Shown piece after piece: positions 7,932 through 63,839 of a DNA stretch of 64,000 nt. Below the pieces are notes generated by a model. The model was given only the letters and a program-made list of their open reading frames with translations, made no database searches and was not told the origin of the DNA. The DNA lies in NCBI GenBank assembly GCA_963800555.1, contig CAWDBH010000010.1, forward strand, positions 104,603-168,602, given 5' to 3'. Position numbers and translations under genes: made by a program. This stretch comes from an uncultured Candidatus Micrarchaeota archaeon (GTDB lineage: Archaea > Micrarchaeota > Micrarchaeia > Anstonellales > Bilamarchaeaceae). Within the stretch, counting starts at the first letter, position 1. Each line of letters begins with the position of its first letter.

Positions 7932-8089
7932 AAAACGGCGAATAAAATGGAAAAAGATGCCAAAACCAAGAAAGAAGAAATTGTTCGCGTAGATCCACAG
8001 TTAATCAGAGACATCATCGAGGCTAAAAAAGCAGTTCTGAAAGAGTTTGCATCTCGCTAGTTTATTAGATATCATGTTCCTTAAAGAGA

Positions 8090-8392
8090 TTGAGAAAAGG
8101 TGTATCTATGGTCATGGTAATGTCGATTTTGGAAGGGGATCTGCCGCCGGATAAAGCGGCCAAGCTCGAAGCGAACTTCGCGGAATATGTGAAAACACTT
8201 GAACCCGGGATTGTACAGACGTCCTTCATCAAGAACGGGGCCAAATGCAAGGTCATAACGCTCTGGGAGAGCAAGGAAGCGCTGACCGCGATGAAAGTCA
8301 AGGGGACCCCGAAGAGCGTGCTGCTGTTCAGATATGCTGGGGTAGAGCCGGCGTTATTGGCTTATGATGTCGTGAATTCAAAAGCGAAATGA
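8090..8392 (+). CDS. Small ABM/Dabb-like protein, function unknown
   Basis: About 95 aa with a ferredoxin-like pattern. Start uncertain (8090 or 8108). Confidence 0.45.
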   Translation: MRKGVSMVMVMSILEGDLPPDKAAKLEANFAEYVKTLEPGIVQTSFIKNGAKCKVITLWESKEALTAMKVKGTPKSVLLFRYAGVEPALLAYDVVNSKAK

Positions 8393-8402
8393 GGTGTTAC
8401 GC

Positions 8403-8783
8403 ATGGGGAACGTAGTGTATTTCGAGATACCGTCTGAAGATGTCGAGAGGGCGAAGAAATTCTATGCCAGCGTATTCGGCTGGGACATAAGGAAAAGCCC
8501 GATGCCTGAGATGCCGGATTATACGATGATCAACACCGGCAAGACGACCGTCGAGGATGGCATGGGTCAGCTGAACATGGGAGGCATCACGAAGAGGGTG
8601 TTCCCGGGGCAGCCGATAACCAACTACATCGAGGTCGAAAGCATCGACAAGACCCTCGAGCTCGTCAAGAAGATGGGCGGCAAGACGGTCGGCAAGAAGA
8701 TGAAGGTGGATACCGTCGGTTTCATGGCCTTCATCAAGGACACCGAAGGCAACGTGATCGGGCTTTGGGAACCGGAGAAATAA
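8403..8783 (+). CDS. VOC (glyoxalase/bleomycin resistance) family protein
   Basis: VVYFEIPSEDVERAKKFYASVFGW and the C-terminal FIKDTEGNVIGLWE pattern. Confidence 0.85.
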   Translation: MGNVVYFEIPSEDVERAKKFYASVFGWDIRKSPMPEMPDYTMINTGKTTVEDGMGQLNMGGITKRVFPGQPITNYIEVESIDKTLELVKKMGGKTVGKKMKVDTVGFMAFIKDTEGNVIGLWEPEK

Positions 8784-8817
8784 TGGAAAAGGATTAAAAA
8801 CATGAATTTCTAAAAGA

Positions 8818-9537
8818 ATGATTGAAAAGATAAAAGAGATTGAGAATATGGCTTGGGGGATTAAACAACACAACATATTCGAACCGAGTACTTTCTTCCA
8901 TCATCCATTTATGTCAGAGGAGCATATAAAAGAAAAATATCAAAAAACCCCAGCATTACCAGAATGGGAATCTGTAGCACCGATAAATTATCTTCAAGTT
9001 TCATATCTAACCGAAATTGAGAGTTTATATAATTCAACTCGTTTGCTCTATGCCCTGTCACCCGAAGTTATTCCATTTTTTCATTTTCAGGTTTTATCAG
9101 CATCGAGAACTATTCTAGAGTTATTAATCAGATTTCAACAAAATATCAGAGATGATGTGAAACTTGATCCAATCGGGCCTCGATTTGATGAAGTTACTTG
9201 GGATCCTAAAATTCGAGAACAAGCTAGAACATTATATGGGGAATTATCATTAGCAACACATGGAAGACATAATGATGTTTATAATAAATCATTATCCTAC
9301 CGGTTATGTCAAAATGATTTAACAGTTGTCGAAAAGAAACATCTTTCTACGTTAATTGAAAATCTTGGAGAAGATCAGGGTAAGCGAGTGTTCTCTGCAT
9401 ATAATGGCCCTATTTTAGATAAATTTTGTTTTGAGGTAATTGGTAAGATCAATATAATCATAATCGAGGTTATGAAAGAAAATCATTATGATAGTAAACC
9501 AAATTTAATTGAACCCCAACATAGTAAACCCAAATAA
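8818..9537 (+). CDS. Hypothetical protein (239 aa) in an AT-rich island
   Basis: ORF only; composition is visibly more AT-rich than the flanks. Confidence 0.55.
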   Translation: MIEKIKEIENMAWGIKQHNIFEPSTFFHHPFMSEEHIKEKYQKTPALPEWESVAPINYLQVSYLTEIESLYNSTRLLYALSPEVIPFFHFQVLSASRTILELLIRFQQNIRDDVKLDPIGPRFDEVTWDPKIREQARTLYGELSLATHGRHNDVYNKSLSYRLCQNDLTVVEKKHLSTLIENLGEDQGKRVFSAYNGPILDKFCFEVIGKINIIIIEVMKENHYDSKPNLIEPQHSKPK

Positions 9538-9718
9538 GCCTAATTTCCCCGTTTTCCATTCTTTTGGCCAGTATTGCCCGTGTAAGCCCTATTACATGGT
9601 CAGGTATCTTCCGGTCAATATCGATACAGTGAACCATATGGTTGAAATGGCTCAAAATACTTAGTATACGGTTTACTGATATGGTTTAGAATAAGAAAAA
9701 TGGTTTACCAAATAACGG

Positions 9719-10012
9719 TTATTCAAACCATTTATCACAGACTGGTCTGACAAACACAATTTGCTCAGTCACGATCAGACTGAATCTTCCAAGACTGATC
9801 GCGAACTCAACTGATTCGCTAGATTGGCCAGCTGGGATGAAGATGGTCCAGGATTTGCCATCGTGCTGCTCTACTAATAATGAACCGATTAATCTCTTCA
9901 TCTGCTCAGATGTCGGGTGAATTGAATTTAGATTATGTCCGGACAGTGCGCACACCTGTTTTCCTAATCCAGTTTCCCGTCGTTGCTGTAAAAGCTCCCT
10001 CATGCATACCAC
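9719..10012 (-). CDS. Hypothetical protein (97 aa), AT-rich island
   Basis: ORF only. Confidence 0.4.
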   Translation of the reverse strand: MVCMRELLQQRRETGLGKQVCALSGHNLNSIHPTSEQMKRLIGSLLVEQHDGKSWTIFIPAGQSSESVEFAISLGRFSLIVTEQIVFVRPVCDKWFE

Positions 10013-10153
10013 GCTGTACTATTATGTGATGGCAGGTATAAAAATATTTCACCAAAAAGCAGCGTTTAGGCCTACCTTCAGGTAAGAAACATATCTGAAA
10101 AATGAATTTAACGTCGATAGATTTATATGGAATGGAATGAAACTAAAACAGTA

Positions 10154-10166
10154 TTGGAAATTCTAA
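10154..10166. promoter_or_regulatory. Degenerate copy (TTGGAAATTCTAA) of the palindromic site TTAGAAATTCTAA
   Basis: Differs at one position from the two exact copies at 10678 and 10736. Lies between the 118-aa and 97-aa genes. Confidence 0.35.
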
Positions 10167-10200
10167 CATATACTCATCTAGTAATTTCCGGGCCTGGAAA

Positions 10201-10557
10201 TCACTCATGCAAATCCGAAGTGATCACATTAATCCCCCCGAATTCTTTCTTTTGTGAATCATCGCTATGTGCAGCTTGATATTTCTTTTCTGCACAGATG
10301 AAATCCACACTAGTAAGCCAGACACCTAGCTTCCTATCTTCCAGAGCCTTCTTTGCCTGCTGCTCACAGTCTGCCTTGAACTGATTGAATTCTTTCCTTT
10401 GCACTTCACTAATCAGTCTTTGAGGTGGAGGGAAATTGAATTTTATAACTCCCATAGCCCAAACGAATGCGAATCCTGTGATTGCTGTTTTTAAAAGTGG
10501 GTGTTTGATCTCTCTTGGAGCCTTGAACCTAGGATTCCGAACAGCCACATATTGCAT
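10201..10557 (-). CDS. Hypothetical protein (118 aa), one hydrophobic segment
   Basis: ORF only. Confidence 0.45.
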   Translation of the reverse strand: MQYVAVRNPRFKAPREIKHPLLKTAITGFAFVWAMGVIKFNFPPPQRLISEVQRKEFNQFKADCEQQAKKALEDRKLGVWLTSVDFICAEKKYQAAHSDDSQKKEFGGINVITSDLHE

Positions 10558-10677
10558 GATTAATTTGCGCTTCCATGATATTTAAATCTTCTCTTTATGT
10601 CGTCATCAACCACATAATTATCTTACCTACACAGTAAGCAGATCTATTAGTTCAAAATGATTGAATATAAGATATTA

Positions 10678-10748
10678 TTAGAAATTCTAAATCTATCTTA
10701 TTATGTATGCTCTGACCCATTATTCGAATTAAATATTAGAAATTCTAA
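10678..10748. promoter_or_regulatory. Two ~30-bp direct repeats, each containing the palindrome TTAGAA-A-TTCTAA (10678-10690 and 10736-10748)
   Basis: Read directly: ATTAGAAATTCTAAATCTATCTTATTATG and ATTAGAAATTCTAAGATTATCTATTATG. An inverted repeat overlaps them: TCTGACCCATTAT at 10711-10723 and ATTATGGGTCAGA at 10757-10769. Confidence 0.45.
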
Positions 10749-10779
10749 GATTATCTATTATGGGTCAGATCTAATCTGG

Positions 10780-12246
10780 TCATTCTTCCAGATTTACGAT
10801 GCTCTCCTTCTCATTATCCTTTGCTGTGTATAAAATGTAATCGAACGGTAGGCCGAGACCCACGTCTGGAAGGCTATCATGGTAACCAGAATTCCCGACG
10901 TGCAGGTGCTGGTGCGGTAATATCGCAAGCGAGTCGCTGACGCTATCGGGCATCTTCACGCGCGTACAGAATTCGCGAAGAGCAACTCTGATAACTCCTA
11001 ACGTGTTTTCAGCAGTATTTGTTTTCTGAGAATTGGTAACCTCTTCGTAAACTCTATTCACTACGTATGCGCGCGCCTTTCTCCACTTCTCCACCGTCAA
11101 TTGACTTTGCTTGGGGAGCGAGCGCACTATCTCTTCTGGTGCCGGTCTTCCTTCCATGGCATTCCTGACGATAGCGCAACCAAGGCTTAGAAGAAAGAGT
11201 GCTGAGTTGACAAGTGACGGTTTCCCCGTATCCTTTAGCGCCTTTGGCGTAAATATCTGCCAGGCCGGGATTTCTGGGAAATAGCATTTTGCGCAATCGA
11301 TGACCGAGGATTGGGTGCCATTCGAGAGTATTGAGATCAAAATGCCGCGTTCTATAGCAGCATCAACGATTCCCTTCTGCTCTGCGGTGAAGTACCAGGC
11401 TTCCGGCCTGCTCCCGGAAATCCTTTTCTGGACCTCCCGTCCCATGGCAATCAAACGTTTCGTGCCGAGTTTGATGTCATTATTACCGAGCTTCCTAATC
11501 ACGAGACCGACATGATCAGGATCCCCAACTATCAAATGTACGATGGTATAGTTGTTTGCCATGACCCAGCGCGGAGCCGGGTGTTGAAATATATCCGGCA
11601 TGCTTTCGAGAAGAGAATCAGCTCTCCGGTAATAAACTGTTGAAAGCGATGCTACTTGTTCCGCAGCATTCTCCCCAAAACAGCTATTCAGTATATCGAC
11701 AGTACTCGAGAATCCGTAATCTATCAGCACACTCTTGAAAGCCGAATACACCACGTCGTTTAACCCACCTCTGGGGAGCAAGAGAGTGGAATGCAGGTCG
11801 AAGCTAACGCTCCGGTATCGTAAGTCTTTAAGACGATCTATGACTTCTGATGCGCAGGAGTCCTCAGTTACATCGTGTTCATGGAGCGGCGGTTGCTCGA
11901 CCCTTTCAATATCTCCGTCACTTGATTGGTAATATGTTACCCCGAAAGCCAAGGGGTTCTGCCTGACCTCATTCTCGGTCTTCGGATCAGGGTTTTTAAG
12001 GATGCGGAATATCGAGATTGGCTGTATTTTGTCGATCAGCGGCTCAACAGCCCGCTCTAGTTCTGCTTCGCTGTCCCTGACCGCGACCACGCGCTCTCCT
12101 TTGATACCGATCCACTTGTTCGGGTACATCCCCCCGATATCTTCCATATGTCGTCTGGCCCAGTCATAGCTGCGCTTGGCCTCTCCGGCCTGGTCAACGT
12201 TAATAATCCGGCTTATCTGCTTACGTTTTTCGTGCAAATATATCAC
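10780..12246 (-). CDS. Two-part protein: N-terminal DUF5678-like domain plus HAD-like fold with non-canonical catalytic residues
   Basis: N-terminus YPNKWIGIKGERVVAVRDSEAELERAVE. HAD-like motifs appear in order: FDLHSTLL (DxH instead of DxD), ILSNGTQ, TGKPS, VGNSGYHD (GN instead of GD). Confidence 0.6.
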   Translation of the reverse strand: MIYLHEKRKQISRIINVDQAGEAKRSYDWARRHMEDIGGMYPNKWIGIKGERVVAVRDSEAELERAVEPLIDKIQPISIFRILKNPDPKTENEVRQNPLAFGVTYYQSSDGDIERVEQPPLHEHDVTEDSCASEVIDRLKDLRYRSVSFDLHSTLLLPRGGLNDVVYSAFKSVLIDYGFSSTVDILNSCFGENAAEQVASLSTVYYRRADSLLESMPDIFQHPAPRWVMANNYTIVHLIVGDPDHVGLVIRKLGNNDIKLGTKRLIAMGREVQKRISGSRPEAWYFTAEQKGIVDAAIERGILISILSNGTQSSVIDCAKCYFPEIPAWQIFTPKALKDTGKPSLVNSALFLLSLGCAIVRNAMEGRPAPEEIVRSLPKQSQLTVEKWRKARAYVVNRVYEEVTNSQKTNTAENTLGVIRVALREFCTRVKMPDSVSDSLAILPHQHLHVGNSGYHDSLPDVGLGLPFDYILYTAKDNEKESIVNLEE

Positions 12247-12285
12247 TCGTTATATTATGTGTAAATCATGATGCGATGCAACGAA

Positions 12286-13011
12286 TCATTGCCTTTCAAG
12301 CCGTGCAAGCATCACTTCTGCGGTTATCATCCTGATGTCGTGCTTCATCCCCCGATTATGATCTTCACCGAAATCCGATGAAATTAGTTGTAATGAGAAC
12401 CTCGCCATAGGCAGGTCTATCCCGGATATCCCTAATAAGTAAAGCGCATCAAGGACCTTTTTTAGTTCTAATACACTAGGATAAGTATGATTTTTTTTAT
12501 AGATATAGCCTTCCAGCGTATAATCAGGGAGAAGCGGGTTTCCAGCCGAAGGACCGATTGAAATACGTGCATTCTCAATTAGATAACTCACACGGGATCG
12601 GGCATTTTTGATTACTTTCGCATGTTCTGCTGAAATATCGGAAATAACTCCAGTATCCTGATTAAATTCGGCAAGCATCAACCTGGCAGCGAGGGCCCTT
12701 CTTTTAGGGACCGTTTTCCCAGAGGAAATAAGACAAAGAGCCTGTTTAATGACGTCACGGTGAGCTTCTTGGTCTGCCGCTTCCAGAAGATATATCTTGG
12801 GGAGCGAATATTCCAAACGATTGCCGAGCCTAGAGTCAGACAAATGGCGTTCTGTACGTTTCACCAATCTAGCCAGATTCTCAGCGCAAATTGTTATGCT
12901 CTCGCTGACATCCCGAGTAGCAAGAATCTCAGCCAAGGGCCTTGCTTTGATTGTGACGACCTTGTAAGTCCTCCTATCATAGTATGTTTGGGGCATCATT
13001 TGTTTCACCAT
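12286..13011 (-). CDS. Hypothetical protein (241 aa), middle gene of a three-gene operon
   Basis: ORF abuts the upstream gene with no gap (13012/13011). Confidence 0.55.
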   Translation of the reverse strand: MVKQMMPQTYYDRRTYKVVTIKARPLAEILATRDVSESITICAENLARLVKRTERHLSDSRLGNRLEYSLPKIYLLEAADQEAHRDVIKQALCLISSGKTVPKRRALAARLMLAEFNQDTGVISDISAEHAKVIKNARSRVSYLIENARISIGPSAGNPLLPDYTLEGYIYKKNHTYPSVLELKKVLDALYLLGISGIDLPMARFSLQLISSDFGEDHNRGMKHDIRMITAEVMLARLERQ

Positions 13012-13527
13012 TCACAAGCAGAATTTCTCAATCCCTGGATCAAGTTGGCCGCTTTCCACAAGCTCTTCGTAAGATACCTCGGTTACGCTCACTCTTTTAG
13101 GTATTCTCATGAGGGCCGGGGGGATTATCAGGGTACCATCGATCGAGGATACGAACTCACGAATCGATGAAAACGCCTGCCCGCAATTTCGAGCGACCGC
13201 TTCGATGATGCTGTTGAAAACCACCAGGAACTTGTTTCCAGGGTCCTTCTGCATCCTGCCGGCGATCGAGAATCCATGCTCCGATATGCATCGCCCTTCA
13301 AGGTCGATTTTCCTCACGATGCCAGTTGTCGTCACATGGCATCCTTTCCCTGAAACCGCGCACGGGAATTTGAATTCGGTCCTGCGACCGACCTCATCCG
13401 TTGATTTGAAAGACAATTCCAGTTCTCCAGCCTGGACGTGATCCGTCAGAGGTTTTTGAAGATGCAGTCTCCAGTTTATTGGTATTGCGCGGTATTGCGG
13501 ATTGGGAACGCATCTACTTTTATGCAT
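13012..13527 (-). CDS. Hypothetical protein (171 aa), first gene of a three-gene operon
   Basis: ORF preceded on the minus strand by TATA-like TTTATATT/TTATATA within about 35 nt. Confidence 0.55.
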   Translation of the reverse strand: MHKSRCVPNPQYRAIPINWRLHLQKPLTDHVQAGELELSFKSTDEVGRRTEFKFPCAVSGKGCHVTTTGIVRKIDLEGRCISEHGFSIAGRMQKDPGNKFLVVFNSIIEAVARNCGQAFSSIREFVSSIDGTLIIPPALMRIPKRVSVTEVSYEELVESGQLDPGIEKFCL

Positions 13528-13566
13528 ATGAAAATAGGTGTATATAAGAGAATATAAATGTATTAG

Positions 13567-13959
13567 TCATTTCTTTCGTGAGAGGAACTTCTTAATCTCC
13601 TCATCGACTATTGCCTCGGCTTTCTTCCCCCCCTCTATCTCGTCGTATCTCTTCAAGACCGCACGGAAGACCGCGAGCTTGTCGGGTAGTTCTTTGACCC
13701 GCTCATCGGACATTATGAGTTCATTCAGAGGCGGCGGGGGAGTGGATAATAAGACTGGTTCGGGGAAATCCACGGGAGGTTGTGGCTCATCTGGCGGGGG
13801 TTTCTGTTTTTTTGTTTCCGGTTCGATTTTCTCGGGCAACCTTTCTGATCTTTTAGCTGGTTCTTCAGCTTTCTTGGCTGGCTCTTCTTTTTTCGCCGCA
13901 GCTCCGCTCTTCTTCTTCGCAACAGCCTCTTTCAATTTGGACAATCCGCTACCTGCCAT
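13567..13959 (-). CDS. Lys/Glu/Pro-rich low-complexity protein with a short helical C-terminal domain
   Basis: KKKSGAAAKKEEPAKKAEEPAK...PPPDEPQPP, followed by ELPDKLAVFRAVLKRYDEIE. Confidence 0.5.
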   Translation of the reverse strand: MAGSGLSKLKEAVAKKKSGAAAKKEEPAKKAEEPAKRSERLPEKIEPETKKQKPPPDEPQPPVDFPEPVLLSTPPPPLNELIMSDERVKELPDKLAVFRAVLKRYDEIEGGKKAEAIVDEEIKKFLSRKK

Positions 13960-13971
13960 CGTTTCACCGGA

Positions 13972-14256
13972 TTACTTTCTCTTTTTTTCCGCGGGTTTCT
14001 TCTTCGTAACGCGCTTTTTCGCGCGGGTTTTTGGTGCTTTCATGATAGGCTCTGAACGTGCGGAGGCCAGCCTCTGTTTCAAAACGTCGGAGTGGAACTT
14101 GGAATCGAGTTCCGTGGCGACTTTCTCATAGTCGTCTGCCTTCACCTGTATGGTGCGGTCATTCCCGCACCTGGTGCAGATGAACCTGCCTTCGACAGTG
14201 TCTATGGAACGGGGCATCTTCCCACAACCAGAGCATATCTCGATTGCGTCATCCAT
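13972..14256 (-). CDS. Zinc-ribbon protein with a highly basic tail
   Basis: CSGCG...CTRCG ribbon and the C-terminal tail KTRAKKRVTKKKPAEKKRK. Confidence 0.55.
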   Translation of the reverse strand: MDDAIEICSGCGKMPRSIDTVEGRFICTRCGNDRTIQVKADDYEKVATELDSKFHSDVLKQRLASARSEPIMKAPKTRAKKRVTKKKPAEKKRK

Positions 14257-14298: not shown

Positions 14299-16266
14299 TC
14301 AGCGGACGCCCAGGAATTCTCTGTTCAGCAGCCATGGACCCGGAATGCCGATTTCCCCATGCAGGAGATTACCCTCAGGGGTCACGTATGTGCCCTTATA
14401 TGTGTTGGGCGAAGAGCTGCCCGTTGGTCCGGTGAATAGCTGTGACTCGAATGTGGGGGCTTTGTTGTACTGACCGAAAAGGCGGAGCATCGGATCGAAC
14501 TGGTTAGCAGGTCCGCTCCACATATCCCCCCAGCTGAGCAGATTCGTCTTTCCAGGTACATACGCTATGTCCACGACATGCATGCCCCCTCGGGTATTCG
14601 CAGTGGCCACAACAGTATGAATGCCATTCGCACGGTAGAAATCACCGACGAAATCAGCGGCGCCTGCGCACAATGTGACCCCTGGCTGTGGATATGGTGT
14701 ATTATGCGTGCTGTACCAAGTGGCAGCGCCCTGCAGGTATGCGAGTAGCTGATTGTTATCCACGGACGCGACCTTAATGACCGAGGGATCCAGGAAGTTT
14801 CCGGCCATGAGGGCGCTTTGCGCCCCTTGAGCGTATGCGACCTGTTGCATGAAAGCGAGCAGGAATCTGCCGGCGTTTATCACATCGTCGGTGGAAGCGC
14901 CTTTGTACTTGGCTGTGAAATCATCGAAGCTCTTCGCTCCGAGCAGCCTGCTCTTTGCGTTATTGTCCACGGTATCCCAATTTGCATCTCCGGATCGTCC
15001 GAATCCGTAAGGACCTGGATTCTGCGTCGTGGGGATATCAGTGGTCGCCTGCGGGACCCCTCCCGGACCCATACGCTCATATTGGGAGCTTATCACCGTG
15101 TTCATACGCGGTCCAGCGATGACCAGGTTAAGTCCAGCAATGATCATGACGTCATTGCCCGGATTTATGTCCGGGTTCCAGTGGGTGATGCCTCCTCTTA
15201 CAAATACGTCTCCGGTCGCCCAGTCGCCGAAATTCATGGTTCTCGAAATACTGCCGCCGTACATGGATTTTATCACACCGTAGTTTGCGAATGGCCCTAT
15301 GGAATAATTAGAGAACCTGAATTGAGCTCCCATAGAAACGCTCTCGAGCTGTGGAGCATAATATCCGATGTATGCTGTCCTTATCGGAGTGCTCGCAGCG
15401 AAATAGAAGTTAGGCGCCCCATAAACCAGAATCCTCTTGTTGTATTCAAGGGACGCGCCGCCTGCGATGTTGAGATAACTGTCGTCTCCCAACGGATAAG
15501 AGAATGCTCCGATTCCGAAGGCTCCCAACCTCAGTCGCCATTTATTGTCCGCGCCGAATGGTTGCGAATATCCCACACCTATCGCGTGCGAGGTGTAAAG
15601 ATAAGAAGGCAGATATCCTACCGCGCTGACACGACCGTAATACATGCCCGTAAAATGCCCCAGGTCCAGGCTCTCTTTCACGGACATGGTAGCGAATGGG
15701 GCCGATAGTGCTCCGAACCAGATATTCCCTCCATCGAACCTGAGCATGTTGTTACGGCTGAAATTATAAGCCATGAAAGCCGAAACGGCAGAACCCGCTT
15801 CGTTCGATAGGATGCCTCCGCCTCCGCTGACTTTATGATTGAGACTTATAGGCCGCTCATTTCCGTTCATATCGACTTTTTCAATGCCGCCAAGAGCCGG
15901 ATCACGGTAATCCGGTTTTGGAGGCGTACTCGAGATTGGAACGTCGGATGGCTTTTCGGTGTCAAATCTCATCTCTATCGTGCCTACGTCGACATCTACG
16001 GTAGAATTCCTTGGAGCCGCTTCTGTGGGAGAGGCTGGTTCTTCTGCTTTGGGGGACTCCTCAGCTGCTATTGGGACAGGCATCTGAGCCTCTTGCGCAT
16101 ACGCTCTCCTTTCACATAATGGGGTCGATATCATGATTGCCGCGGCGGCCACTGCGGCACTCAATCCGAATGCTCCTAGACGAGTGTTTGCTTTTTCTGC
16201 CGTCTCGGTTTGCTTCCTTGTCTCGCTTCCGTGCTTCGTAAATCGTAATTGCATTATATCTACCAC
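14299..16266 (-). CDS. Signal-anchored secreted protein: Pro/Glu linker, beta-strand-rich aromatic/Gly region, C-terminal transglutaminase-like Cys-His-Asp domain
   Basis: N-terminal hydrophobic segment LGAFGLSAAVAAAAIMI. Alternating patterns in the middle, for example WRLRLGAFGIGAFSY and SVSMGAQFRFSNY. C-terminus GVTLCAGAADFVGDFYRANGIH...GGMHVVD...WGD. Confidence 0.65.
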   Translation of the reverse strand: MVDIMQLRFTKHGSETRKQTETAEKANTRLGAFGLSAAVAAAAIMISTPLCERRAYAQEAQMPVPIAAEESPKAEEPASPTEAAPRNSTVDVDVGTIEMRFDTEKPSDVPISSTPPKPDYRDPALGGIEKVDMNGNERPISLNHKVSGGGGILSNEAGSAVSAFMAYNFSRNNMLRFDGGNIWFGALSAPFATMSVKESLDLGHFTGMYYGRVSAVGYLPSYLYTSHAIGVGYSQPFGADNKWRLRLGAFGIGAFSYPLGDDSYLNIAGGASLEYNKRILVYGAPNFYFAASTPIRTAYIGYYAPQLESVSMGAQFRFSNYSIGPFANYGVIKSMYGGSISRTMNFGDWATGDVFVRGGITHWNPDINPGNDVMIIAGLNLVIAGPRMNTVISSQYERMGPGGVPQATTDIPTTQNPGPYGFGRSGDANWDTVDNNAKSRLLGAKSFDDFTAKYKGASTDDVINAGRFLLAFMQQVAYAQGAQSALMAGNFLDPSVIKVASVDNNQLLAYLQGAATWYSTHNTPYPQPGVTLCAGAADFVGDFYRANGIHTVVATANTRGGMHVVDIAYVPGKTNLLSWGDMWSGPANQFDPMLRLFGQYNKAPTFESQLFTGPTGSSSPNTYKGTYVTPEGNLLHGEIGIPGPWLLNREFLGVR

Positions 16267-16322
16267 TAGTATATTGTAATAGAAGGTTATTTAAGGTTAC
16301 AGTTTAAGTATTAAAATGAGAT

Positions 16323-16469
16323 TTATTCCTTGGCCGCACCGGATTCCACCATATGCTTGAACATCGCTACCGGAACCATCACCGACACATTGGCGCCGCA
16401 TGCGGTGCACAGGAAGTCATCCTTGTGCTCTTTGGATATCTTCCCGCAATTGGCGCATATCTCGACCAT
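16323..16469 (-). CDS. Small zinc-ribbon protein (48 aa)
   Basis: My translation: MVEICANCGKISKEHKDDFLCTACGANVSVMVPVAMFKHMVESGAAKE. Sits 18 nt downstream of the aminotransferase gene; below the track cutoff. Confidence 0.45.
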   Translation of the reverse strand: MVEICANCGKISKEHKDDFLCTACGANVSVMVPVAMFKHMVESGAAKE

Positions 16470-32340: not shown

Positions 32341-35300
32341 TTATCCCATTTTTTCTGAGAAATGGCTGGCTTTGGCCCATTCAAGGGCCTCAGCATTGAA
32401 TCTCTGCAATCGATTCTCTTCGAATTTTGTGCAGGTGTGTTCAATGAGGGCGATGCATCTTTCATCCTTGACCGCGGCCTTCATCGCAGCGAGGTTAGCT
32501 TTAGGATTCGCTGCATAATCCTGGTAGGCGTTCACAAGGAATTGGAACTTCTGTTCTACTTCCTCCGGTTCGGGGGCGCCGGTCGCTGATTCATCCGTGG
32601 CAAGCCGGATGGCGGCGGAATTGAAATCAACTTTTTTTGATTCTGGTAGATCCAGCCTTCCATTCCAGTACCTCCTGATAAGGAAGATATCCCTGGGTGT
32701 CAGTCCCATCCCTGTCATCTGAGCTTCCGCTTCCTGCGCGCTCCCTGAAGAGGAATATAGTGCATAAGCCTCGGTCATAACGCGGAATCTCTGCTTGATG
32801 GCACCTGTGATGGTGAGGATATTCAATTCCGGCATGGGCTTGTCCGAGACCGCTGATTTCCCAGTTCCCTGATCTACACGGGCCTTGGCCTGCGCGATAT
32901 TGCCTGCCCTTACCATGTAGATGAGCGGGGAGACCCCGTTCAACAAAGGAGTTAGCGGGCTGCCCGTCTCATGGAGCCTTCGGATTCGCTCGCGTCCCTG
33001 AGAGCCCGTGACTATGGTTTTTCGGCGCGCGATTTTCGGCTGCTCATGCGCAATTTGGGCAGTCTGGACATCATACTCTATTATCGGAGTCATGAGCGAG
33101 TCGGTTTTTGCCGAAAGCTGAGGTATCTGGGTCGGGGAGCCGAATCTTGATATCTGGCCCGTGCCGACAGATTGGATGAATTTCAGGAACATGCCGTCTT
33201 CTGTCACGGCGACGCAATAATCGGTTTTGCCGTCTGCCGAGCGGACGACGACGTTCAGGTATTTTCCGTAAACGCCCTCGTCCCATCCAGTGACCCACGA
33301 ACGGACGAACGTGGATGGGAGCTGGTTCTTGTCGGAGATGTCCCATACCGGGGCACCGCGCGTGATCTCGTCCTGTATCATCTGTTCCCCACCTCTGACC
33401 ATACTCACAGTAGTAGCCACGGTCTTCTCCATATTCGGTTTTAGCCCCAATGACGGGAGGTCGATATGCGCCATACGCATGGGCGTGCCGGCTGCAAGGA
33501 GGGAATCCAGATGTTCCTGGACTGCGAGGTCATAGGCCTGGTAATGCTCGGCGAATACAGTGTTGCCTTTATTGTAATGCCCCTCGAGGTTGTCGCATCC
33601 CGCGAACCTTCTCCACACGCCTTGCGACTGTGACAGGTATGCAACCGAGAATTGCGTGTTTCCGTCCGTGGTCACATAGACCGGAACGACGTAGTCCAGC
33701 CTGCTGTGCACCCCATCACCGACAAGCATCGGCTTGCCGAAAGCCACGCTCTGATGCTCGTTTATGACAAGTGAGGGGCCCGGAACGAACGCGGCTTCGT
33801 TATCAAGCATTATCTTGTGCAGTCCTGCCGCGAAATCCTGCGCGATGGCGTTCACTTCAGATCCGGACTGAGCAGGATCAAATGGGAAAAGATGGGCATC
33901 AAGCATCGCTTTCCGGGCTTCTGCGGCCGCGCTGCTGGAGTGAGGGGCTTCAGACTGCGCTTGAGGAGGCATTTGACCCTTCTCCGAGGCTTGCGGCTGC
34001 TGGGGAGCCGCCGCTTCCGCGTCTTCCTCGGCTTGCCACGGCGCCAAAGGCGCTTCCTCGTCTTTGTCCGCATGCCACTCCTGGAACGAGGCGGGTTTGC
34101 CATTTTCAGCCTCGGTGGACTGCTGAGGGGGAGTCCCCGCCGCCTCTTCATCGTAAATAGGCGCTTCTTCGCCTTGCTCCGCATGCCATGCCTGAAGTGG
34201 AACTTTTCGCTGGGCAGATGCGTCTGCATGGACGTTTGGAGTTGGGGTTGATGGGGAAGCCTTTTTCCAGCCTCCTGCATTTGGCTGGCTGGCACTGGGA
34301 GCCGCCGCCTCTTCATCGTAAATAGGCGCTTCTTCGCCTTCCTTTGCCTGCCATACCTGCAAGGGAGTTTCCTGTGCCGCGGCTGCAGGACCATGGTTTC
34401 TCGTACGAACCCATGCCAAGGCCGCGGTTTCAAACTTACCCATGCGGCTGCTCTCCGAAGCCTCGAAAATCTTCGGTATGGCGGCGACACTGCCCGCGTC
34501 TTTTATGTGCTCCCTCAGCCTTATTATGGACCGGGTTGCGGCGAATTCCTGGTATGCCTGCCGGATGGATTCGAATTTTGCCTGGATTTCCCCAGCACTC
34601 GGATCCGACCTGAGCTTCTTGATAGGGCTTAGCGTGAACGTATCCCTTAGAGCCAGGGATGCCCTGGCCTCGCCCATCAGAGCACGGTCAGTTTCCTCAG
34701 ATATCTCGGTTGGAGCCTCGCGACAAAGGGCGGCCTCCCGGGCGTCAAGGCCATATGCTTTCATCCGCCGCTCGGCTTCTGCCGGATTAGTTTGATAGAG
34801 CGCATTTACAGCCTGGAGAAGGGATACCCTGTTGTGGATATTATTTGCCTTGGTACCTTGCCTTGCAACAGCCTCAAACCGCTGCTTGCGCTCGGAATCA
34901 GTCGTCAACTTCCCGGTGCATCCCTTCAGCACGGCAACTTCCGCTGGGGAAAGGCGGTAGGTATCGATAAGCCGGGATAATTCAGCTTCTGAAGGGTTAT
35001 TCTGATAATGGAAATAAGCGGTATTCAGCTGATTCACCCTTTTCTCGACGCTCGCCTCATCGGCCCAGCTGGTGGCCCTTGCATGGAATGCTTGCTTCCG
35101 TTCCACTTCAAAAGCCGTTAATATTCCCTGGACGCCTTTAACGAAAAACTCTTGGTCGGAAAACAGATCAGTTCCTTCGAACTTACTGGTAAAAATTTCG
35201 TGGAGCTTGGCTGAAACGCCCGGCTGACCTGAGATGATGAAAGCTAAGGCTTCCTCCAACTTCTCTGCCCGGTGAGATTCCAAAGCCATCGTTTCCGGTT

Positions 35301-36273
35301 TGCGCCCCCCCGGCCCTTTTGCAAGTTCCTCGATGCCGGGGATGACATCCCCCGGAACGCCTCCGCGGAGGCTATACTGCCTGATAACTGCGATATCCTC
35401 CGGCTGGAAACCCAATCCCTTCATCATCCCCACGGCTCGATCCGGATTCGATTCATACATAGCGTAAGCCGCATCAAGTAGGAAAAACCTGTTCCTTATA
35501 TCAGCATCCAGGATGATGGCACGCGTGGCGGGCCCGACTGAACCCGCTGCTCCAGATGAAGCGGACGGAGGCGGCTCTGGCGGGGTCGACCCGCTGGGTG
35601 GTGGAGGAACCTCAACCGGGGCTTCGGTTGGCGAACCCGAAGCCTGCGAAGGCATCGCAGGTGCCTTGACTGGGGATTTCTGAGCAGGCGTTGCCGGGAG
35701 AGGCCTTTTCGAGGCAGCCGGTCCTTTGGTCTGTGAAGCGATATCCACTTTTCCTTTATCCTTTTGTAGTGCAGACGCACCAGCTGAAGGTTTCTGAGTA
35801 AGCGGTTTGGTCTCGGTTTTGCCTGCGGCAGTTGTTTGGGCTGGAGGCGGTGGAAGCGGTCTTGTGGATGGTTTGGTCTCGGTTTTGCCTGCGGCAGTTG
35901 TTTGGGCTGGAGGCGGTGGAAGCGGTCTTGTGGATGGTTTGGTCTCGGTTTTGCCTGCGGCAGTTGTTTGGGCTGGAGGCGGTGGAAGCGGTCTTGTGGA
36001 TGGTTTGGTCTCGGTTTTGCCTGCGGCAGTTGTTTGGGAAGATGAAGCGGCGGCTTTGATTCCTGGTAACGCCCTTGCAATCGTGCCCGCCACATTCGTA
36101 CCGCTATCGACCTGAGCATGAGCCGCGTTCACCGCGGTGGACACTTTCGCATGGTCGCTTTGTTTCGGTTCATGAGGGATCGCCGGTTGTCTTTCCGTAT
36201 GCATCTGGTGCTCTTGCGACTCGCCTTCTGTCGTTTTTTTCTTAAGTGCCACTGGTGTCTCTTGAGGTGTCAT
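32341..36273 (-). CDS. Giant repeat-containing protein (1310 aa), function unknown
   Basis: Uninterrupted 3.9-kb ORF. Contains perfect 22-aa Pro-rich repeats, three Trp-acidic repeats, six ~40-aa helical modules of the form (R/K)F..L..AY..Y..NP..A...M...GL, and two beta-rich globular regions. Confidence 0.85.
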   Translation of the reverse strand: MTPQETPVALKKKTTEGESQEHQMHTERQPAIPHEPKQSDHAKVSTAVNAAHAQVDSGTNVAGTIARALPGIKAAASSSQTTAAGKTETKPSTRPLPPPPAQTTAAGKTETKPSTRPLPPPPAQTTAAGKTETKPSTRPLPPPPAQTTAAGKTETKPLTQKPSAGASALQKDKGKVDIASQTKGPAASKRPLPATPAQKSPVKAPAMPSQASGSPTEAPVEVPPPPSGSTPPEPPPSASSGAAGSVGPATRAIILDADIRNRFFLLDAAYAMYESNPDRAVGMMKGLGFQPEDIAVIRQYSLRGGVPGDVIPGIEELAKGPGGRKPETMALESHRAEKLEEALAFIISGQPGVSAKLHEIFTSKFEGTDLFSDQEFFVKGVQGILTAFEVERKQAFHARATSWADEASVEKRVNQLNTAYFHYQNNPSEAELSRLIDTYRLSPAEVAVLKGCTGKLTTDSERKQRFEAVARQGTKANNIHNRVSLLQAVNALYQTNPAEAERRMKAYGLDAREAALCREAPTEISEETDRALMGEARASLALRDTFTLSPIKKLRSDPSAGEIQAKFESIRQAYQEFAATRSIIRLREHIKDAGSVAAIPKIFEASESSRMGKFETAALAWVRTRNHGPAAAAQETPLQVWQAKEGEEAPIYDEEAAAPSASQPNAGGWKKASPSTPTPNVHADASAQRKVPLQAWHAEQGEEAPIYDEEAAGTPPQQSTEAENGKPASFQEWHADKDEEAPLAPWQAEEDAEAAAPQQPQASEKGQMPPQAQSEAPHSSSAAAEARKAMLDAHLFPFDPAQSGSEVNAIAQDFAAGLHKIMLDNEAAFVPGPSLVINEHQSVAFGKPMLVGDGVHSRLDYVVPVYVTTDGNTQFSVAYLSQSQGVWRRFAGCDNLEGHYNKGNTVFAEHYQAYDLAVQEHLDSLLAAGTPMRMAHIDLPSLGLKPNMEKTVATTVSMVRGGEQMIQDEITRGAPVWDISDKNQLPSTFVRSWVTGWDEGVYGKYLNVVVRSADGKTDYCVAVTEDGMFLKFIQSVGTGQISRFGSPTQIPQLSAKTDSLMTPIIEYDVQTAQIAHEQPKIARRKTIVTGSQGRERIRRLHETGSPLTPLLNGVSPLIYMVRAGNIAQAKARVDQGTGKSAVSDKPMPELNILTITGAIKQRFRVMTEAYALYSSSGSAQEAEAQMTGMGLTPRDIFLIRRYWNGRLDLPESKKVDFNSAAIRLATDESATGAPEPEEVEQKFQFLVNAYQDYAANPKANLAAMKAAVKDERCIALIEHTCTKFEENRLQRFNAEALEWAKASHFSEKMG
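35804..36038. repeat. Perfect 66-bp tandem repeat, about 3.5 copies, in frame inside the giant gene
   Basis: Unit GGTTTGGTCTCGGTTTTGCCTGCGGCAGTTGTTTGGGCTGGAGGCGGTGGAAGCGGTCTTGTGGAT starts at 35804, 35870, 35936 and 36002. It encodes QTTAAGKTETKPSTRPLPPPPA on the minus strand. Confidence 0.95.
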
Positions 36274-37861: not shown

Positions 37862-39353
<1,492 letters not shown>

Positions 39354-63712: not shown

Positions 63713-63839
63713 GGGCCTGTAGCTCAGTTTCTTTTTGCTATTTTTTGCCTTATAGGGCAAAAACGCAAAATATAGAGCAACTTGGTAGAGCGTCGGACTT
63801 TTAATCCGCAGGCCGAGGGTTCAAATCCCTCCAGGCCCG
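63713..63839 (+). tRNA. tRNA-Lys(UUU) with a ~54-nt intron in the D-loop
   Basis: GGGCCTG-TA-GCTC-AG-[54]-TTGGTA-GAGC-G-TCGGA-CTTTTAA-TCCGC-AGGCC-GAGGG-TTCAAAT-CCCTC-CAGGCCC-G. Confidence 0.85.

Follow-up and report, generated by a model that had tools for sequence, protein, structure and literature searches.

A 64,000-nucleotide stretch of DNA from an uncultured Candidatus Micrarchaeota archaeon (contig CAWDBH010000010.1, positions 104,603 to 168,602; the window) contains a gene for a protein that joins a predicted outer-membrane-type beta-barrel to a cysteine enzyme domain. The gene is located at 14299..16254 on the minus strand. The protein is composed of (left to right) a signal-peptide-like N-terminus, a disordered spacer, a short conserved segment, a barrel domain with 15 modelled strands, a conserved linker, and a C-terminal domain of the transglutaminase/papain-like kind with an invariant cysteine and histidine. 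With moderate confidence, it is read here as a Sec-exported, barrel-anchored thiol enzyme of the envelope that is specific to Micrarchaeota and related archaea. A further reading is offered tentatively, as one that may well be wrong. It holds that this is the first native archaeal transmembrane beta-barrel family and a DPANN counterpart of type V secretion, in which a self-inserting barrel in the cell's own outer layer or in a host membrane displays or delivers a thiol protease.

The open reading frame (ORF) singled out in an earlier sequence-only reading of this DNA exists. As called mechanically, it spans 14299..16266 on the minus strand, begins with GTG at 16266, and is 655 amino acids in length. 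Residue numbers throughout are counted from this GTG. The true start is probably the ATG at 16254 (Met5), 12 nucleotides downstream of 16266, because Met5 is invariant in the family alignment and the database protein identical to the query (P0001) is 651 amino acids long. Judged by its homologs, the ORF is a real conserved gene and not a chance one, since 23 of them match at E 1e-67 to 0 and 110 cluster representatives were recovered.

Predicted Beta-Barrel Domain

The barrel domain comprises residues 146-398 (15073..15831, minus strand). It was modelled with AlphaFold2 as part of the full-length protein, using a 23-sequence alignment. The full-length model has a predicted local distance difference test (pLDDT) value above 90 for essentially all of residues 120-655 and a predicted template modelling score (pTM) of 0.76. 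The domain contains 15 DSSP strands of 10-16 residues that form consecutive hairpins with turns of 2-13 residues. The sequence-only reading had proposed a beta-barrel-like region at 15069-15819 (residues 150-400), and this agrees with the modelled strands, which run from 146 to 398 as a high-confidence meander of about 15 strands. All of the peptides quoted in that reading are present. The five given as strands correspond to modelled strands 243-257, 264-275, 279-290, 304-318, and 350-363.

The barrel model was searched with Foldseek against 350,542 PDB chains, and the top 50 matches were examined. All 50 are closed transmembrane beta-barrels with the exception of JAGN1, which is at rank 49 with a probability of 0.09. 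Matches with a probability of about 1 include LptD, VDAC1, BtuB and other TonB-dependent receptors, BamA, TamA, KdgM, NanC, and a type-9-secretion barrel. No soluble barrel, beta-sandwich, or beta-helix is present among the top 50. Structure prediction likewise gave neither of the two folds that had been set against a membrane barrel, a beta-sandwich or a beta-helix, and the barrel idea stands.

The strands have a two-faced pattern. Across the family, one face of most strands is 60-86% hydrophobic, and the opposite face consists mainly of Gly, Ser, Asn, Thr, and Arg. Charged residues make up 18 of the 191 strand residues, with very few Lys, Glu, or Asp on the polar face. This pattern in the aligned sequences fits a lipid-facing exterior and a small or polar lumen better than it fits a soluble sheet. 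Short turns (5, 2, 5, 3, 2, 3, and 4 residues) are found on the side where the N-terminus of the barrel lies, and longer ones (2, 2, 6, 6, 13, 2, and 7 residues) on the opposite side. Outer-membrane proteins (OMPs) show the same asymmetry, with short turns on one side and longer turns on the other.

Several observations weigh against a barrel of this type. The TM-scores of the Foldseek matches are low (0.17-0.50), and the E-values are 2e-4 at best. Such modest values are to be expected for barrels that differ in strand number and are not specifically related. No sequence link to any OMP family was found with Pfam, NCBIfam, or phmmer against the PDB, or with 23- and 48-sequence profiles against the PDB; the profile searches returned only a spurious poly-Ala match. 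Bacterial OMPs carry a C-terminal aromatic signal, whereas the barrel of this protein is internal and the chain ends in ...EFLGVR without such a signal. The closure of the barrel, its exact strand number, the thickness of its hydrophobic belt, and the position of the enzyme domain are read from DSSP strings and Foldseek lists, and each should be taken as provisional.

These observations bear on the alternative that the beta-rich domain is soluble or embedded in a lattice, for example in a surface layer (S-layer), where it might oligomerise through its hydrophobic face or enclose lipid. AlphaFold and Foldseek would then be showing a generic meander. The low TM-scores and the lack of sequence homology to OMP families are in keeping with it, as are two strands (205-216 and 279-290) that are hydrophobic on both faces and the lack of a known archaeal outer membrane in cultivated relatives. 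The near-exclusive recovery of transmembrane barrels argues the other way, since the one other match has a low probability. So does the polar face, because a Gly/Ser/Asn-rich surface with few Lys, Glu, or Asp is what OMP lumens typically show, unlike sheets exposed to solvent. In addition, 15 strands of 10-16 residues would be too many for a soluble barrel with a hydrophobic core. A domain outside lipid is therefore considered unlikely, and a membrane barrel is the preferred reading.

A conserved segment precedes the barrel at residues 120-145 (15832..15909, minus strand). It contains the invariant residues D122 and R138 and is modelled with pLDDT of about 90, but not as regular strand.

Linker and Predicted Enzyme Domain

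The barrel is followed by a linker motif, NPGPYGFGRSGD, at residues 416-427 (14986..15021, minus strand). This motif is the most conserved part of the protein, and G418, Y420, G423, and G426 are invariant in the family alignment. The C-terminal alpha/beta domain, residues 428-655 (14302..14985, minus strand), is composed of a helical sub-domain (428-520) and a transglutaminase/papain-like core. Modelled alone, residues 405-655 have pLDDT of 88.6 and pTM of 0.86.

The sequence-only reading had called this domain transglutaminase-like, and structure comparison bears this out. The best PDB match of the isolated domain (Foldseek) is a bacterial transglutaminase, 4xz7. It is joined by many VASH1/2 structures, CPR-C4, arylamine N-acetyltransferases, AvrPphB, and an amide synthase, so that the matches are transglutaminase-fold cysteine enzymes. 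At the sequence level, the Pfam family Transglut_core (PF01841) has weak sub-threshold matches in 10 of the 23 relatives, the best at E 8e-4, and several distant relatives also have weak matches. The query itself has no Pfam match at E<=10 and no NCBIfam or PDB sequence match at threshold (phmmer). Within the transglutaminase-like superfamily, this domain constitutes a new family.

The predicted nucleophile is Cys533, whose codon is at 14668..14670 (minus strand), as the sequence-only reading had it. Cys533 is at the N-terminus of helix 533-546. His563 (codon at 14578..14580, minus strand) is on strand 561-570. In an alignment of 48 relatives that extends down to 19% identity, only four columns are invariant, and Cys533 and His563 (48 of 48 each) are among them. 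The conservation proposed earlier for a Cys-His-Asp set therefore holds for the first two residues. It does not hold for the Asp of the WGD motif (D581), which is in a variable column (N21/D14/K3/M3...). The candidate third catalytic position lies within Ser578 to Asp581 (codons at 14524..14535, minus strand). Column 578 is Asp in 42 of the 48 relatives and Ser in the query.

The replacement of the canonical third Asp by Ser counts against an active thiol enzyme. On the same side, the Foldseek matches of the domain have probabilities of 0.9-1.0 but marginal E-values (about 1e-3) and TM-scores of 0.27-0.39, and searches of Pfam, NCBIfam, and the PDB gave no sequence-level link of the query to any peptidase family. 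One alternative is that the domain is not a protease at all, but a crosslinking transglutaminase, an acyltransferase, or a catalytically dead binding module. The annotation of the top structural match as a transglutaminase, the matches to arylamine N-acetyltransferases and an amide synthase, and the Ser at the family's Asp position are compatible with this. Yet the invariant Cys and His argue for catalysis, and peptidases (vasohibins, CPR-C4, and AvrPphB) make up the majority of the matches. In prokaryotes, transglutaminase-like proteins are also mostly regarded as proteases. Ser578 in place of Asp need not argue against catalysis, because enzymes of the vasohibin type rely on Cys, His, and a backbone carbonyl and have no acidic third residue (PMC9108980). 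A function other than proteolysis is thus judged improbable, and a thiol protease is preferred.

The last 15 residues (640-655, with the conserved end ...FLGVR) differ between the two models. They have pLDDT above 90 in the full-length model and below 50 in the isolated domain. Because the tail is confident only in the full-length model, it must, if the models are correct, contact the barrel or dock on it. Tail docking and the pTM of 0.76 together suggest a rigid assembly in which the predicted enzyme caps the barrel. Among the relatives, the barrel never occurs without the enzyme domain, truncated entries excepted.

N-Terminal Region and Spacer

The signal-peptide-like N-terminus comprises residues 5-57 (16096..16254, minus strand). 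A long basic stretch is followed by an Ala-rich core at residues 30-48, which is the only strongly hydrophobic stretch in the protein, and then by A55-x-A57. A single N-terminal hydrophobic anchor had been proposed for this region. The single hydrophobic stretch is as described, but it is more likely part of a cleavable Sec signal peptide than a permanent anchor, because A55-x-A57 followed by Gln or Glu is nearly invariant in the family alignments and in distant members a textbook signal peptide occupies this place (for example, MRRHALAALLLLLFFVAVTSAHA). The signal-like region is modelled with low confidence, and pLDDT is below 50 for residues 1-114.

Two other kinds of signal were considered and rejected. 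The long basic n-region and Ala-rich core suggested a Tat signal, but the query has a single Arg and no twin-arginine is conserved. A lipoprotein was suggested by Cys51 of a PLC sequence, which is not conserved in the family.

A disordered spacer rich in Pro, Glu, and Ala follows at residues 58-119 (15910..16095, minus strand), as defined by composition and AlphaFold2 disorder. The Pro/Glu-rich linker of the earlier reading is borne out, with 14% Pro and 10% Glu as measured on residues 61-150. Spacer length ranges from about 60 to 200 amino acids across relatives.

Some relatives (P0007, P0015, P0017, and also P0028) contain an extra conserved and folded-looking insert (…SVLSLLNSERVL…FRVNFDG…) within the Pro/Glu spacer, at alignment columns ~150-290. 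The insert points to a further binding domain, located on the same side as the N-terminus of the barrel.

Family, Distribution, and Archaeal Origin

A word-indexed search of 5.8 billion proteins returned the 23 relatives noted above. None is functionally named, and the two that carry a source name are labeled as hypothetical and assigned to Candidatus Micrarchaeota. When 1.84 billion cluster representatives were searched exhaustively with a profile, only 110 proteins reached E<=1e-3. Scanning prokaryotes at one genome per species gave 23 loci, of which 22 are in Micrarchaeota-type metagenome-assembled genomes (MAGs), including Ca. Bilamarchaeum, and one is in an entry labeled "archaeon". No relatives were found on viral contigs, and no paralogs were found nearby or elsewhere in the window. 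The result is an unannotated family of about 110 representative clusters that has no Pfam or NCBIfam model and a clear predicted catalytic signature.

The family can be sorted into two classes with local hidden Markov models (HMMs). Class A has the barrel followed by the enzyme, like the query, and also includes distant members in which a match to the barrel HMM persists. One distant class A member is on a contig with archaeal GatD, AglB/STT3, and FtsZ. Class B has the enzyme core first, followed by a C-terminal region of 250-300 residues that mostly ends in ...[IV]-K-[FY], which resembles the classical terminal aromatic of bacterial OMPs. One class B subfamily has invariant C181/H212/D227 and is on clearly archaeal contigs. 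One such contig carries L24e, S28e, and L7Ae beside a gene of more than 4,500 amino acids (the giant neighbor, in L027), and another carries proteasome, aCPSF, and OapB/C genes. Further class B proteins come from contigs that look bacterial or from Omnitrophota.

By hhalign, the class A and class B enzyme cores are homologous (probability 98.7%). Homology of the query barrel to the class B C-terminal region was also considered and is unsupported (hhalign probability 11%). Two reverse-order relatives, at 10001-11716 of L027 and 10001-11623 of L034, consist of a signal peptide, a Cys-His-Asp core, and a strand-rich region ending in ...K-F/Y. The two-module logic recurs on archaeal contigs in reverse order, and these contigs are likely DPANN.

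The window is archaeal. It contains a complete archaeal 16S rRNA gene at 37862-39353 (minus strand), 21.6 kb from the barrel-enzyme gene, as well as archaeal-type genes for a bifunctional fructose-bisphosphate (FBP) aldolase/phosphatase (FBPase_3) and ABCE1/RLI. The GC content around the gene is 0.53, close to that of the rest of the window. About 20 Micrarchaeota MAGs have the gene in this syntenic slot, with identities of 30-73%, and this indicates long vertical inheritance. On these comparisons, it appears to be genuinely archaeal and vertically inherited in Micrarchaeota.

The opposing reading is a bacterial contaminant, or a recent transfer from bacteria with no real archaeal role. Barrels of the outer-membrane fold otherwise belong to bacteria and organelles, and some distant enzyme-core relatives are on the bacterial-looking contigs or in the Omnitrophota mentioned above. 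Against this are the position of the gene within 64 kb of archaeal sequence near a 16S rRNA gene, the shared slot, and a GC content similar to its surroundings. A bacterial source is accordingly most improbable, and contamination in particular was rejected on synteny and context.

Possible Membrane Location and Proposed Mechanism

Membrane proteins of the beta-barrel type are held to be a hallmark of the outer membranes of bacteria, mitochondria, and plastids. Archaea are not known to produce them, and Micrarchaeota are thought to have one membrane only. A conserved and vertically inherited barrel family in Micrarchaeota would challenge this view of barrels if the barrel is embedded in lipid. 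The literature on beta-barrels, porins, and transglutaminases in Micrarchaeota and DPANN was searched, and no description of such a protein was found. Both folds are of known kinds, and it is the fusion, its archaeal home, and its conservation that are undescribed in the literature searched.

In the proposed mechanism, the protein would be exported and then probably cleaved at the conserved A-x-A site. The flexible Pro/Glu-rich spacer would lead into a single-chain barrel of the outer-membrane-protein type with about 15 strands. The hydrophobic outer face of the barrel would be embedded in a lipid layer outside the cytoplasmic membrane, which could be the symbiont's own outer layer or the host membrane at a contact site. 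The transglutaminase/papain-fold domain, with its Cys533-His563 pair, would be rigidly docked on one mouth of the barrel and would act on surface proteins, most likely as a thiol protease and less likely as a transamidase. In layout, the protein would work like an inverse autotransporter whose barrel both anchors and exports the enzyme, its passenger. If the strand count is odd, spacer and enzyme would lie on opposite sides of the membrane, and the enzyme would share its side with the long loops. Of this picture, the analysis itself establishes the domain composition, the fold classes, the invariant Cys and His, the archaeal restriction, and the conserved synteny; signal peptide cleavage, closure and lipid embedding of the barrel, the membrane concerned, and proteolysis with its substrates are inferred. 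A role in surface or inter-cell remodelling, as the domain content had suggested in the sequence-only reading, is plausible.

Early work by cryo-electron microscopy and transmission electron microscopy (TEM) pointed to two membranes in the Micrarchaeota (Comolli 2009; Baker 2010; Sakai 2022), and TEM of strain ARM-1 was read in the same way. Proteomics and cryo-electron tomography of cultured Micrarchaeota indicate an S-layer and not a lipid outer membrane, which counts against an envelope barrel. So does the fact that barrel-insertion machinery is not known from archaea, with neither an outer membrane nor BAM machinery known for this one, and that all of the evidence for the protein is computational. 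The barrel may sit in an outer lipid layer of this non-acidophilic, uncultured lineage, in the host membrane at contact, or outside lipid. The protein provides a molecular handle on the old dispute over two membranes versus an S-layer in Micrarchaeota.

The host membrane also figures in a separate reading. Here, the barrel is inserted in that membrane and serves as a contact-dependent pore or translocator by which a thiol protease is displayed or delivered, analogous to predator and toxin barrels. It would suit the Micrarchaeota, which are obligate episymbionts, and whose cultivated members possess an S-layer but lack an outer membrane. The spacer, at 60-200 amino acids, could span tens of nanometres, and enzyme and barrel-like modules recur in both orders on other archaeal contigs. 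A precedent is the Bdellovibrio outer-membrane protein PopA, which is reported to insert into the prey membrane (PMC12228718). A single-chain barrel with a hydrophobic exterior, however, has no obvious soluble route across two S-layers. If the conserved A-x-A site means that the protein is released from the symbiont membrane, as it suggests, the spacer would be left without a clear role. Insertion into the host is for these reasons given a low probability. The protein is a candidate for the means by which DPANN symbionts with reduced genomes make contact with, remodel, or tap their hosts.

Genomic Context and Other Features of the Window

The gene order around the barrel-enzyme gene is a class-III aminotransferase gene, a 48-amino-acid zinc-ribbon gene, the barrel-enzyme gene, and a 94-amino-acid zinc-ribbon gene. 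The upstream zinc-ribbon gene (16323..16469, minus strand) encodes a CxxC...CxxC protein, and its position is kept in 19 related loci. The downstream zinc-ribbon gene (13972..14256, minus strand) is kept in position in 20 of 26 loci. Its product contains CxxC...CxxC and a Lys/Arg-rich basic tail and has a weak DUF5816 match. The two zinc-ribbon proteins are paralogs with 35% identity over 34 residues. Further upstream are syntenic housekeeping genes, including those for deoxyhypusine synthase and RsmB-type methyltransferases.

A candidate TATA-box-like element, TTAAATAA, is located in an AT-rich stretch at 16287..16294 (minus strand), about 35 nucleotides upstream of the ATG, and was identified from sequence only. 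Each flanking zinc-ribbon gene has a TATA-like element of its own, and that of the downstream gene is TTTATATT. Because of these separate elements, no co-transcription of the barrel-enzyme gene with the zinc-ribbon genes is claimed.

Four minus-strand ORFs of 488, 241, 171, and 130 amino acids are located downstream at 10780-13959 and have no Pfam matches. The 488- and 130-amino-acid ORFs recur only in the closest relative (L004), and the 241- and 171-amino-acid ORFs recur in none of the 26 loci. An operon with these ORFs was rejected, as they are not kept across the 26 loci and two of them are found in the nearest relative only. The GC content dips to 0.42-0.44 at 8001..13959, compared with about 0.51 elsewhere in the window, and this segment may be variable or acquired.

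Three further features of the window were recorded. A 1,310-amino-acid ORF (32341..36273, minus strand) has no Pfam match and no obvious signal peptide, and contains about four tandem copies of a 22-amino-acid unit, AQTTAAGKTETKPSTRPLPPPP, near its N-terminus. The complete 16S rRNA gene (37862..39353, minus strand) is not accompanied by a 23S or 5S gene within the 64 kb, so its rRNA genes are unlinked. An Rfam tRNA match at 63776..63831 (plus strand) scores 33.4 bits over model positions 9-63 and was not called by ARAGORN. It may be an atypical, split, or intron-containing tRNA.

Comparison with Known Systems

The enzyme domain resembles the transglutaminase/papain-like peptidases (PF01841, VASH1/2, and CPR-C4) in its alpha/beta core, with a Cys at the start of a helix and a His about 30 residues later on a strand. 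In CPR-C4, C61 and H93 are 32 residues apart, and in the query Cys533 and His563 are 30 apart. CPR-C4 is also from ultra-small episymbionts (Candidate Phyla Radiation bacteria), as is the query. Unlike these enzymes, the query has the extra helical sub-domain at 428-520, the fused barrel, and Ser578/Asp581 as candidates for the third residue.

The barrel domain shares with LptD, BamA/TamA, BtuB, KdgM/NanC, and VDAC its long antiparallel next-neighbor strands, dyad hydrophobic pattern, Gly- and aromatic-rich composition, and short turns. VDAC has an odd strand count of 19, and that of the query is apparently odd as well, at 15. Bdellovibrio PopA is likewise a barrel protein of a cell that lives on other cells. 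It differs in forming a pentameric open-wall assembly without an enzyme domain, and no similarity between it and the query was detected. The authors of the PopA study noted a possible distant relative in the diderm DPANN Altiarchaeales (PMC12228718).

The layout resembles that of the inverse autotransporters (intimin/invasin, type Ve). These have 12 strands, compared with about 15 in the query, and the query has no match to autotransporter families in Pfam. The order of parts is the same, with a signal, a periplasm-side segment, a barrel, a short conserved linker, and a folded passenger. The classical autotransporters (type Va) are in turn mirrored by the reverse-order relatives, in which the enzyme is followed by a region ending in K-F/Y.

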